37,213 nucleotides of DNA, taken from contig JAGHSL010000041.1 in the NCBI GenBank assembly GCA_018065885.1, positions 1 to 37,213 on the forward strand. The letters are read 5' to 3'. A program made the position numbers and the translations under genes. This stretch comes from Candidatus Limimorpha equi. GTDB taxonomy: Bacteria; Bacteroidota; Bacteroidia; Bacteroidales; F082. Shown here piece after piece: positions 21,248 to 30,768 of the stretch. How positions within the stretch are numbered: the stretch's first letter is position 1; every line of letters starts with the position of its first letter. The notes beneath the pieces were generated by a model that had not been told where the DNA came from, searched no databases, and worked only from the letters and a program-made list of their open reading frames with translations.

Positions 21248-23020
21248 TCAATCGTTTGGACAATGCACCATAAAACTCCAGGCGGTCCCTGAATCGCCAT
21301 CAGGAATTACTTCTATATAAATCTTCGGTTTATGGAACTGGATTGTTTTCGTGATTTCATACTCGTCCGTAAGTCCGAAAAACCTAAAGATTTCCTCACC
21401 TTTGTTATCTTCACCATCATAGATGACGATAAGGTCAGGGTAGTAATTACCCGTAAAGTAATCGAACTCGAAAGAGCCGGAATTCTGCCCCATATCGACA
21501 ATAAAGCTCTCTGGGGTATTGCTTCCCGATTTCTGTACCTCATCGCAAGGTCTTAACACAGGAGGCGGAATCACTTTATCGTCCGGATTAACATTATCGT
21601 CCGGAATAACATTGTTGGTTGGAATAATAGGACGGACAACTGGATCGGTGCAGCCACACCCGCAGAAGTCGTAATGCCCATGACCCAGCAAAATCAGCCA
21701 TAACAGCAGGAAAAGCAGCAGCAAGCCCAAGGCAAGCAGCAGCCAATTGAGCAAGGCATGCCACAGTCCGCCGCGCCCTGATTTCACAGGTTCTTTCCTT
21801 TCAGGCTTTTGGGCGGTAAAGTCTCTGTCTTCGACAATACTTTCGGCCATAGGGTCGGCATTCCATTCACTGCAGGTCTCGCCGTCAACCACAGGCAAGG
21901 GCGGCACCTGACCGGGAGTCAGCCTTGTTCCATGCTCAACCAGAAACTGCGTGATGACTTTTCCATCGGGAAGGAGAAACCTCACCGTATGCTTCTGCGT
22001 GTCGGGCGGTGCTGGCGCAATGGCCTTATAGTCGCGGTTGTCATTGACCACATCGTTCATCGGGTCGCCATCCCAAGTCGTACAGACAACTCCATCAACA
22101 ACTGGAAGTTGAGGAATATAGTCGCTGCCAATCCGTTTGCCATGCTCAGCATCGAATTCGATGATAACCTGCCCGTCAGGTGTAAGGAAACGGATGTGAT
22201 GAGTGATTGGCGGTTCTTCCTTCGGATCTTCTTTCAGTTCTTCCTTCGGATCTTCCTTCGATTTTTCTTTCGGCTCTTCTTTCGGCTTAGGCTGTTCTTT
22301 GTATTGGGCCGTAAAACTAAGGTCAGATTTCACCTCAACACCTATGGGATTCCTATCCCAGCCCAAGAAATCACAGCCATCATTGGCTCGAACCAACGGC
22401 ACCTGATGGGGCTCAATCCTTGAGCCATGACTTTTCTTCAGCTCTGTGGGATTGTCAGTAGTGCCACGGACACCAAGTTCGAACCTGACAATATGTAATT
22501 CCTTTTCAGGGAATAAGTCCGCAAAGATAATCGACTCTTCAAAATCGAAGCCATCTCTGGGCCGCATACCCCAAACCGTGGCTACCACACGATTGTCTCC
22601 ACAATAGACATTACTCTCCGAATCACCGGCATACTTAAGCGAAAGCTGAAGGAAGTTAGCTTCTTCGGCCAATCCTTCGTTCTTCAGCCGGTCAAGCACC
22701 GAATGATAATGGGCGAGCGTCTTGTCGAGCAACGACTTGTAAAAGTCATGGTCGGCGCCAGCCTTGCTCAAGCGCACAAATTCGGCATCGGAACGCGGCG
22801 TGAACCAATAGAAATACTCTTCCGATTTCTGCTTGTCAACATCATAATACGGCAGGGCAAGAAAATCACGATAAGGTTCATCGACAAACTGGTCGATGAT
22901 GCCTTTCACACTGTCGTAACGTTTCCACATGGGCCACTGTCCTATCCCCTGCTCATCGCATACCTGCGACCGTAAGGTGACACATAACGGTTTGTAGCCT
23001 TTAACTGCTGGTATTGGCAT
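21248..23020 (-). CDS. SrfA-like N-domain + 3 InlB-type B repeats + TM + Cys-rich/beta-rich C-terminal domain (paralog of 23033..24643)
   Basis: 590 aa with no signal peptide. The N-domain contains WPMWKRY, YWFTPRSD, LSLKYAGDSESNVYCGDNRVVATVWGMR. The repeats start HIVRFEL, HHIRFLT and HTVRFLL, with (F/V)xGWD or W(D/N)xxP. The low-complexity KEQPKPKEEPKEKSKEDPKEELKEDPKEEPP spans nt 22300-22208. TM is LWHALLNWLLLALGLLLLFLLLWLILL (21766-21683). A 144-aa tail follows. Confidence 0.75.
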   Translation of the reverse strand: MPIPAVKGYKPLCVTLRSQVCDEQGIGQWPMWKRYDSVKGIIDQFVDEPYRDFLALPYYDVDKQKSEEYFYWFTPRSDAEFVRLSKAGADHDFYKSLLDKTLAHYHSVLDRLKNEGLAEEANFLQLSLKYAGDSESNVYCGDNRVVATVWGMRPRDGFDFEESIIFADLFPEKELHIVRFELGVRGTTDNPTELKKSHGSRIEPHQVPLVRANDGCDFLGWDRNPIGVEVKSDLSFTAQYKEQPKPKEEPKEKSKEDPKEELKEDPKEEPPITHHIRFLTPDGQVIIEFDAEHGKRIGSDYIPQLPVVDGVVCTTWDGDPMNDVVNDNRDYKAIAPAPPDTQKHTVRFLLPDGKVITQFLVEHGTRLTPGQVPPLPVVDGETCSEWNADPMAESIVEDRDFTAQKPERKEPVKSGRGGLWHALLNWLLLALGLLLLFLLLWLILLGHGHYDFCGCGCTDPVVRPIIPTNNVIPDDNVNPDDKVIPPPVLRPCDEVQKSGSNTPESFIVDMGQNSGSFEFDYFTGNYYPDLIVIYDGEDNKGEEIFRFFGLTDEYEITKTIQFHKPKIYIEVIPDGDSGTAWSFMVHCPND

Positions 23021-23032
23021 TGTATGTCTGTT

Positions 23033-30500: not shown

Positions 30501-30768
30501 GAATGTCCGCATCATTATTCCAGACACCCATATATTTGTCATTGGCGTCAAGAAGACCCTTTGATTTCAAATCGTTCTTCGACACGTAAAGCGAATTCCC
30601 CGTATTGGGATCCTCAATCTGCTGTGCCACTTCCAACGATAGTTTTCTGGCTGTCTTGTTCCAGTATTGATGAAAATGGAATCGTGTCCTAAAATCACTC
30701 CAATTAAATTGGATATTTGTTTTATGGAATTGTATTCCGGTGTTGGCGATCAATGATATTTCTTCCAT
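27574..30768 (-). CDS. srfB: SrfB-like giant actin/Hsp70-fold (ASKHA) ATPase
   Basis: 1064 aa. The phosphate-1 motif is VDLVVDMGNSRTTAV (DMGNSRTT at 29853-29830). Phosphate-2 is VGSVDIGAGTTDVMI (28908-28885). The adenosine-type motif is DIVLLAGRPCSL. ISLIANTGIQF, WLPFPCF, GPYNWARI and SSPKRYLWD match blocks I recall from Salmonella SrfB. Confidence 0.75.
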   Translation of the reverse strand: MEEISLIANTGIQFHKTNIQFNWSDFRTRFHFHQYWNKTARKLSLEVAQQIEDPNTGNSLYVSKNDLKSKGLLDANDKYMGVWNNDADIRRFDPNSIIEAKASTLQKPILKGELPVLARFFNQWLPFPCFERNMAGRLQEGPYNWARIMVSPVGFDAENPNEYDYNGTQNWNITIAFDTASVYDDGNYVNEFRESPLFANRFEKKKSFGVPSTDLMLMNFVAPPKGNSDWIDAGILKLVHNTSDINMLYRKFPQDVDGGQTMPPLYTYLAAYLYFLHVIATSLPQMEVQLINAMFDAPINVDLVVDMGNSRTTAVLFEEGHFDKVAMVDLQDFSHPFQSENTPFDMNVVFDMADFGICKIGNSTQFVHPSLVRLGREATYLRFQSKLGKGQKYSTCSSPKRYLWDKHPRQYEWQNIAHGDNDPEPIELKGITNQFNSDGTLSHTGRSGGEKRYSRRSLMTFAFLEILAQAYRQINSQKFRKDKGEKDTPRRISKIIVTCPTAMSRVEQIELRTAAAEAYTVLNRYLGHTDGIPLDYHTAINAAPVKPSLRDLRAGLGQNPVWLYDEATSVQFVYLCAEVAERYKNNCAAFFNRYGKIRQDVFEADGKTLYGKKSLTVGSVDIGAGTTDVMICSYKYDTVGQTTLTPVPRYWESFYIAGDDILKAFVQDIVIEGVDSMVEQKLKSQGKAPHVIATLITDFFGENTARMNFTDRQIRREFCQQVSVPIAQYFMECTHRNEFDRRDLRWNDIFSGKDQPNPELLEAFFHHFGFRIEEQVWHYDIKVTTRIINDVMDGLLKKISVALAEYGCDIVLLAGRPCSLKPIEDIFLKYYPVEPNRLKVLVEKRYRVGRWYPFQEGNGFFENQKSVVAVGALVGYICSELGGYEGMSINLGELGQKLLPTTDYIGLMSNKASSIIPDKDILLDPQALSTTFSVPSIPIRLGCRQLNTASYPARSLFSLDFDDDAIRERVIADRIEKHLPTDNLALIQDAIDARKLRIRNNMPLKLEIERDFQADREKVIVTDVTDRNDLAVDKKAISLQIKSLSESDTFWLDTGEFKCKIAAN

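Follow-up and report, generated by a model that had tools for sequence, protein, structure and literature searches.

Probable duplicated SrfA homologs with predicted intracellular B repeats, located downstream of srfC in a Bacteroidales operon

The window analysed here, the whole stretch of 37,213 nucleotides from contig JAGHSL010000041.1 of Candidatus Limimorpha equi, carries homologs of srfB and srfC followed by two SrfA-like genes. These four minus-strand genes are tightly packed between positions 21248 and 30768, with intergenic gaps of 6-32 base pairs (bp). The SrfA-like genes are designated gC (paralog 1) and gD (paralog 2), and the coordinates of all features are collected in Table 1. 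SrfB and SrfC displayed full-length Pfam matches above the gathering score. The gene order srfB-srfC-srfA'-srfA'' proposed in a first-pass annotation made by reading the sequence was confirmed. SrfB contains an actin/Hsp70-like phosphate-1 motif and a weak Pfam match to FtsA at amino acids (aa) 304-328; SrfC is a P-loop nucleoside triphosphatase (NTPase) with the Walker A motif GQSQCGKS. A hydropathy scan uncovered no hydrophobic segment in either protein, so both are predicted to be soluble. Sequence searches of the PDB with SrfB, SrfC and the product of the downstream gene gG retrieved no relatives.

gC and gD are paralogs (56% identity over 419 aa, E=2e-170). The N-terminal domain noticed in both at first reading, called the head below, was about 155 aa long, and the motifs WPMWKR, YW(Y/F)TPR and LSLKYAGDSE.N(I/V)YCGD..VVATVWGMR were all present. 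AlphaFold 2 (AF2) modelled it very confidently (Table 1). The close family of the window proteins was small and uniform, with 68 clusters forming two orthogroups that co-occurred on contigs: 34 clusters of about 500-560 aa for gC and about 34 of 500-670 aa for gD.

Table 1. Features of the window (positions on the whole stretch; TM, transmembrane; pLDDT, predicted local distance difference test)
Feature	Positions	Strand	Remarks
srfB homolog	27574..30768	-	1064 aa; PF07520, E=3.4e-166, 555.5 bits, aligned 2-1057
srfC homolog	24650..27541	-	963 aa; PF10139, E=5.3e-89, 300 bits
gC, SrfA-like paralog 1	23033..24643	-	536 aa; head, four B repeats, tail-anchor TM
gC SrfA-N-like head	24188..24643	-	aa 1-152; hhalign (family); AF2 pLDDT 96.7
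gC four Flg_new/InlB-type B repeats	23174..24127	-	about aa 173-239, 279-343, 349-413, 425-490
gC TM helix	23054..23122	-	about aa 508-530; Kyte-Doolittle 2.77; 6 residues after
gD, SrfA-like paralog 2	21248..23020	-	590 aa; head, three B repeats, TM, predicted extracytoplasmic domain
gD SrfA-N-like head	22559..23020	-	aa 1-154
gD three B repeats	21800..22498	-	about aa 175-241, 273-337, 343-407
gD linker between B repeats 1 and 2	22205-22297		aa ~242-272
gD TM helix	21683..21763	-	about aa 420-446; Kyte-Doolittle 3.21; K/R bias on N side
gD tail, predicted extracytoplasmic	21251..21682	-	CGCGC cluster, Pro-rich linker, Cys-bounded PPC/CUB-like beta jelly-roll (aa ~491-590)
gE, signal-anchored papain-like C1 peptidase	20318..21247	-	PF00112, E=1.6e-15; TM aa 18-36; directly after gD
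gF, 4-TM membrane protein	19264..20244	-	gF-like gene downstream of SrfA-like gene in related loci
gG, P-loop NTPase (GVPGSGKT)	17504..19165	-	syntenic in related loci
Upstream same-strand genes	30777..34249	-	trypsin-like lipoprotein, ECF sigma, anti-sigma, second trypsin-like lipoprotein
gH	14265-17342	-	common ~190-aa head
gL	9434-11209	-	common ~190-aa head; DUF805
gM	7839-9404	-	internal repeats
gN	6715-7479	-	internal repeats
gO	5176-6120		repeats in common with gL C-terminus
gP	3382..5103	-	head, TM, FGE/SUMF1-like domain (PF03781, E=3e-47)
DUF1294 protein	3076-3363	-
Asp-Al_Ex permease	1763-2983	+
WG_beta_rep protein	426-1595	-

The head is followed by repeats of about 65 aa, which had been counted as four in gC and three in gD. 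A hidden Markov model (HMM) of the repeat, run against the six-frame translation of the window, recovered exactly these copies and no others (starting at aa 174, 280, 350 and 426 of gC and at aa 176, 274 and 344 of gD), and the sequence GYVFTGWD was indeed found in gC repeat 1. Their assignment to the Listeria-Bacteroides (InlB B/Flg_new) type was upheld by profile comparison: the repeat profile matched best in the PDB to a Flg_new-type domain of a sialidase (E=0.002) and to structure 2y5p of the InlB B repeat (E=0.003), and among 50 relatives 16 matched Flg_new (best E=3.9e-8) and 15 matched Flg_new_2 (best E=7.3e-10). The direct Pfam score of gC for Flg_new was weak (E=0.0042, 17.6 bits, under the 27-bit cut-off) and gD gave no match to this model. 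A low-complexity Pro/Lys/Glu-rich linker, PKPKEEPKEKSKEDPKEELKEDPKEEPP, separates the first two repeats of gD; a different linker, acidic or Pro-rich, occupies the equivalent position in gC.

One strong hydrophobic helix was encountered in each protein. The maximal 19-residue Kyte-Doolittle mean over the first ~58 residues was only 0.35 in gC and 0.49 in gD, in line with the earlier statement that neither has a signal peptide. That statement also located the sole helix at the C-terminus, which held for gC, whose helix occupies aa 512-530 of 536, but not for gD. If a tail anchor is taken as a TM helix within about 30 residues of the C-terminus, gC is tail-anchored, while gD is bitopic since ~145 further residues follow its helix. 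This gD tail was kept in 11 orthologs, with invariant cysteines and the CGCGC cluster. In its AF2 model, aa 50-140 of 145 reached pLDDT 89-96, and Foldseek related it to collagen-binding (pre-peptidase C-terminal, PPC) domains of ColG/ColH and to CUB domains (E=4.6e-5, TMt 0.55-0.66). It displayed no similarity to SrfA-C, the C-terminal domain of SrfA (hhalign 0.2%).

SrfA is described as a protein without signal peptide that begins with an SrfA-N head, from which a disordered linker leads to a TM helix and then, in the periplasm, to the lipocalin-like SrfA-C; an AlphaFold 3 model docks SrfB, then SrfC, on the head (10.64898/2026.09.18.752743). The WY.P and WGF blocks attributed to SrfA in the first-pass annotation are real, as canonical SrfA carries DWYAP and VMSFWGF in the same order. 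Canonical SrfA was represented here by the protein of the Enterobacter sp. 638 plasmid (gene order srfA-srfB-srfC), by 120 family members whose N-domains were aligned, and by the curated NCBIfam model NF040486 (SrfA_fam, cut-off 150 bits). Direct tests were insignificant: the HMM of the 120 N-domains scored gC and gD at 6.7-6.8 bits, and the HMM of the narrow family scored single SrfA sequences at 15.4 bits (Runella) and -1.7 bits (Enterobacter). Alignment of the narrow profile with the SrfA-N profile was only moderate (hhalign 85%, E=5.8e-6), and the family was therefore widened by a search of representatives. With the head profile as query, HMMER searched 1.84 billion representatives in full and gathered 153 proteins at a library-wide E<=1e-3, and a further homolog search with the broad N-domain profile yielded 6 fragments only.

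hhalign aligned the wider head family with the 120 canonical N-domains at a probability of 98.3% (E=1.8e-14); the alignment spans 137 columns and keeps the A.P...WY.P and V...WG(F/M) blocks in register. An alignment restricted to the 36 members whose own score against the canonical HMM was below 12 bits still reached 96.8% (E=2.9e-10), whereas the controls (reversed SrfA-N, ten column-shuffled alignments and an unrelated head from the same operon) gave 0.4% or less. Matches to NF040486 were found in 23 of 50 relatives (best 1.4e-21). Reduced to its N-domain, the Runella protein matched at 6.7e-12 (residues 19-155 on model positions 17-146) and relative P0318, which also has the SrfA-C end of the model, at 7.8e-4. 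The detection of SrfA-N in gC and gD was thus transitive only, via the wider family: comparison of the heads with SrfA families gave clear profile-profile similarity, and single-sequence tests were negative. On this evidence, obtained by sensitive methods only, the suspicion that gC and gD represent a duplicated SrfA equivalent encoded behind srfC was supported, and their heads are very probably homologous to SrfA-N. By the NCBI full-length criterion, gC and gD are not SrfA. Foldseek found no significant PDB neighbour of the head; its weak list (E 0.3-3) consisted mostly of protein-kinase-like folds, and a remote kinase-fold resemblance was likewise reported for SrfA-N (10.64898/2026.09.18.752743).

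All full-length relatives were organized alike: aa 1-150 form the head, a linker leads on to a single TM helix, and a variable tail closes the protein. The helix was located at residues 220-490, or at 746-764 in one member of 1432 aa. B repeats were present in 78 of the 102 TM-bearing representatives, in one to four copies, always between head and helix and never after it; the repeat HMM detected none in the 120 canonical SrfA sequences. Domain order and topology were predicted from sequence. None of the 175 family members of at least 300 aa displayed a signal peptide, the highest 19-residue hydropathy within the first 60 residues being 1.25, so that the SrfA-like combination of a head, a single TM helix after it and no signal peptide was recovered by prediction. 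In 99 proteins the count of lysine plus arginine was higher before the helix than after it, against 12 with the opposite imbalance, a positive-inside bias that favours a cytoplasmic N-terminus (N-in). The gD tail, a secreted-type jelly-roll with conserved cysteines, supports the same orientation. As judged from hydropathy and charge, an N-in topology is likely. The repeats are consequently predicted to be intracellular, as first suggested, since they are flanked by a presumably cytoplasmic head and the sole TM helix in proteins without signal peptide, and since they would share their compartment with a head homologous to the docking site of two soluble NTPases.

The part beyond the helix was variable. 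A Peptidase_S8 (subtilase) domain was present in 35 of 50 relatives and, where checked (P0190, the Runella protein, P0210, P0318 and the proteins of loci L005-L008), it followed the TM helix; catalytic motifs were intact where checked. The Runella plasmid protein, annotated as 'S8 family serine peptidase', is composed of head, TM, S8 and SrfA-C. P0190, the closest S8-bearing relative, displays a gC-like head, four repeats and the helix GFWRW...LYII, then S8 and a DUF2135-like domain; gC resembles P0190 cut off just past the helix. In the window, peptidase gE is encoded directly after gD, and its Cys/His/Asn catalytic motifs were seen in the sequence. Protein P0243, encoded at 3005-4792 of the 6-kb contig L010, unites a head and a TM helix with a C1 peptidase that is 58% identical to gE aa 37-307. 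This pair, split in the window and fused in P0243, is the strongest hint that anchors and peptidase act together. The neighbours of P0243 on L010 are a gene for a small membrane-anchored DUF2135-like protein (2430-2993) in front and a gF-like gene behind. Protease activity in the clade of the window is encoded separately, by gE and the upstream trypsin-like lipoproteins.

A close-alignment search gave five related loci, and ten loci beyond the window were examined in all. Nine of these ten share the order srfB-srfC-srfA' with the window, the exception being the short contig L010. The nine comprised Runella (L001), Bacteroidales metagenome-assembled genomes (MAGs; L003-L005), Porphyromonas MAGs (L006-L008) and the metagenomic L009 and L011. 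The extended order srfB-srfC-srfA'-gF-gG was confirmed by similarity of both downstream genes in L003, L004, L005 and L009. For L006-L008 the confirmation covers the gG-like gene only; the evidence was weak in L001 and consisted of gene sizes alone in L011. Two SrfA-like copies, both without peptidase, were specific to the clade of the window (L003, L004). Among named genomes, an uncultured Bacteroidales MAG from red deer is the nearest. Accessory genes known from proteobacterial srf loci recur: the window encodes an FGE/SUMF1-like domain in gP, and L011 included ABC (ATP-binding cassette) and FtsX genes, as does the Enterobacter srf locus; an FGE-like enzyme and ABC/FtsX genes were reported beside proteobacterial srfABC (10.64898/2026.09.18.752743). 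gF displayed no similarity to the 311-aa protein encoded after Enterobacter srfC. On plasmid pSP2_1 of Runella sp. SP2 (L001, 1-7382 and 8617-19531), srfB-srfC-srfA'(S8) lies immediately downstream of the BREX genes pglZ and brxL. A link to anti-phage defence, suggested by this adjacency, received no support from PADLOC, whose defence-system models matched none of the Srf proteins of the window.

Directly upstream of srfB, the two trypsin-like lipoproteins (paralogs, 39% identical) enclose genes for an extracytoplasmic function (ECF) sigma factor and its zf-HC2 anti-sigma factor. The block was complete in L004; L003 has both trypsin-like genes plus a short gene of anti-sigma type, with no sigma match. 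With such a block upstream, the ~31-kb operon may respond to envelope stress as a whole. Further downstream, gH, gL and gP form a second set with a common head of about 190 aa, TM helices and variable tails, gL and gP being 82% identical over 289 aa. Their head was considered as a relative of SrfA-N and rejected as unrelated (hhalign 0.3%); it served as a negative control above. gM and gN are paralogs (44% identical) without a Pfam match. The operon probably ends at the strand switch located at about 1700-3000.

Taken together, the computed head homology, repeat identity and synteny are best explained if gC and gD are duplicated, strongly diverged SrfA homologs in a Bacteroidota-type arrangement after srfC, acting as N-in anchors, a reading that we regard as reasonably probable overall. 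Each anchor would be inserted into the inner membrane in N-in orientation. By homology, the SrfA-N-like head of ~155 aa would be cytoplasmic and dock the actin/Hsp70-like SrfB and the P-loop protein SrfC. The three to four B repeats would form a folded cytoplasmic stalk where proteobacterial SrfA has a disordered linker. A single helix would cross the membrane and expose a variable part outside: an S8 peptidase in most relatives, in some with SrfA-C in addition, a PPC/CUB-like binding domain in gD and nothing in gC. In this way, the nucleotide-driven assembly of SrfB and SrfC in the cytoplasm may be coupled through the anchors to where periplasmic proteases or binding modules are positioned or how they are controlled. 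SrfB/SrfC binding, protease coupling and the biological role are what we infer from domain fusions and synteny, and this functional part, stalk included, is tentative, with a chance somewhat below even. More speculative, and rather unlikely in its full form, is the idea that SrfBC is a cytoplasmic two-NTPase machine that deploys or switches on periplasmic proteases through SrfA-type anchors, as an inside-out envelope-remodelling or conflict system; beta-grasp B repeats would then be an intracellular stalk or docking array, and gC and gD a pair of peptidase-less adaptors or regulators for proteases encoded in trans, namely gE and the trypsin-like lipoproteins.

Several observations weigh against the anchor interpretation. 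NF040486 did not match gC or gD even at E<=10, and its best score among the relatives, 86.5 bits for the Runella protein, is under the cut-off, as are all others. The lipocalin domain SrfA-C is absent from gC, which ends 6 aa after its helix, and from gD. Hydropathy and charge are the sole basis of the topology, and the docking of SrfB on the head is carried over by homology from SrfA as modelled in a preprint. Neither srfB nor srfC is visible on the contig encoding P0243. The only experimental literature on SrfABC labels the system a toxin (PMC6950479). The main rival is that the proteins leave the cell with SrfB and SrfC by vesicles, lysis or another route and that the repeats bind outside, as in a released toxin or adhesin. 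Cytotoxic and insecticidal activity of the tripartite Xenorhabdus SrfABC (PMC6950479), a proposed vesicle export of membrane-anchored SrfA (10.64898/2026.09.18.752743) and the treatment of Flg_new repeats elsewhere as surface or adhesin domains (PMC9723798) all favour it. It nevertheless appears improbable: no signal peptide, C-terminal domain of the type IX secretion system or lipobox was found in 175 relatives, SrfB and SrfC are nucleotide-dependent soluble proteins, and repeats were always on the head side of the membrane, with S8, PPC and SrfA-C always opposite. Release in vesicles would, moreover, leave the repeats facing the lumen.

A decaying gC, functionless and derived from an S8-bearing SrfA-like gene truncated past the TM helix, would account for its P0190-like head, four repeats and helix and for its stop 6 residues later. 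Such decay is quite unlikely given that the gC type was intact with four repeats in 32 of 34 tail-anchored clusters (48-91% identity), alongside gD, and that the gC-gD pair was syntenic in L003 and L004; this retention and synteny indicate purifying selection, and a peptidase-less copy could serve as scaffold or regulator. An inverted topology, in which a cryptic signal would bring head and repeats into the periplasm and leave the C-terminus inside, is very unlikely. B repeats and beta-grasp domains are usually extracytoplasmic and the heads of gC and gD contain conserved cysteines, which speak for inversion. Against it, no family member exceeded a 19-residue hydropathy of 1.25 in the first 60 residues, the positive charges point to N-in, and the gD tail, like the S8 and SrfA-C tails of relatives, is of a secreted type. 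Inversion would also require signal-less translocation of a folded N-terminal segment of 420-510 aa, which is not known for Sec or YidC. Finally, the heads might owe their WY.P and WG(F/M) blocks to convergence and their srfBC neighbourhood to coincidence. The insignificant direct scores of gC and gD, their lack of a match to NF040486 and the lack of a significant Foldseek PDB match for the head are what this explanation has in its favour. It is hardly tenable in view of the profile-profile alignment with its clean negative controls, the intermediates matching NF040486 at 6.7e-12 on the N-domain alone, the same overall architecture, the srfBC linkage in 10 of 11 loci (window included) and the kinase-like bias of the weak Foldseek list, as reported for SrfA-N.

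SrfABC systems are widespread and have been labelled variously as virulence factor, effector or toxin. If gC and gD are indeed SrfA-type anchors, the outer part of SrfA would be a swappable module, most often a peptidase in the Bacteroidota variant. The pair gE and P0243 ties a SrfA-like head to a C1 peptidase and suggests a concrete, genetically testable output of the system; should SrfBC prove to be a protease switch, the srfABC operon, an orphan for 25 years, would gain a testable biochemical output. The repeats constitute a family-wide conserved case of Flg_new/InlB-type repeats predicted to be intracellular, which calls for caution with automatic adhesin labels. The SrfA family would further extend to proteins now annotated as hypothetical or as S8 peptidases, which the curated models do not name SrfA. 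SrfABC and the SrfA layout were already known; the Bacteroidota arrangement appears to be previously undescribed, as the literature turned up no account of SrfA-like genes placed after srfC, of a stalk made of B repeats, of S8 or C1 peptidase tails or of a duplicated pair without peptidase.

Proteobacterial SrfA (NF040486; Salmonella, Xenorhabdus, Haemophilus and Enterobacter sp. 638 WP_011906515.1) resembles gC and gD in its homologous SrfA-N head, the absence of a signal peptide, one TM helix after the head and a C-terminal part that is extracytoplasmic. It also shares one operon with srfB and srfC, with FGE-like and ABC/FtsX genes nearby. In contrast to the canonical order srfA-srfB-srfC, the SrfA-like gene of the window follows srfC and is duplicated; three to four B repeats, predicted to be folded, replace the disordered linker. 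The lipocalin-like SrfA-C with its four cysteines, which some relatives (P0318) keep, gives way to a PPC/CUB-like jelly-roll in gD and to nothing in gC, and both proteins fall below the family cut-off.

The Bacteroidota proteins annotated as 'S8 family serine peptidase' (Runella sp. SP2 WP_122934668.1, P0190, P0327) belong to the same head family and occupy the same post-srfC position. They have in common with gC and gD the layout of head, B repeats (where present) and TM helix as well as the downstream gF-like and gG-like genes, and P0190 even displays the four repeats and the TM motif of gC. They differ in carrying S8 after the helix, sometimes with SrfA-C or a DUF2135-like domain, whereas the window pair has lost S8 and is accompanied by a separate C1 gene. 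With InlB B-repeats and Flg_new (PF09479, PF18998), the repeats share the signature V.F...G......G......P.....G..F.GW.......D..F.A.Y over about 65-70 aa; unlike the known members, which are secreted or surface-exposed, those of gC and gD are predicted to reside in the cytoplasm.

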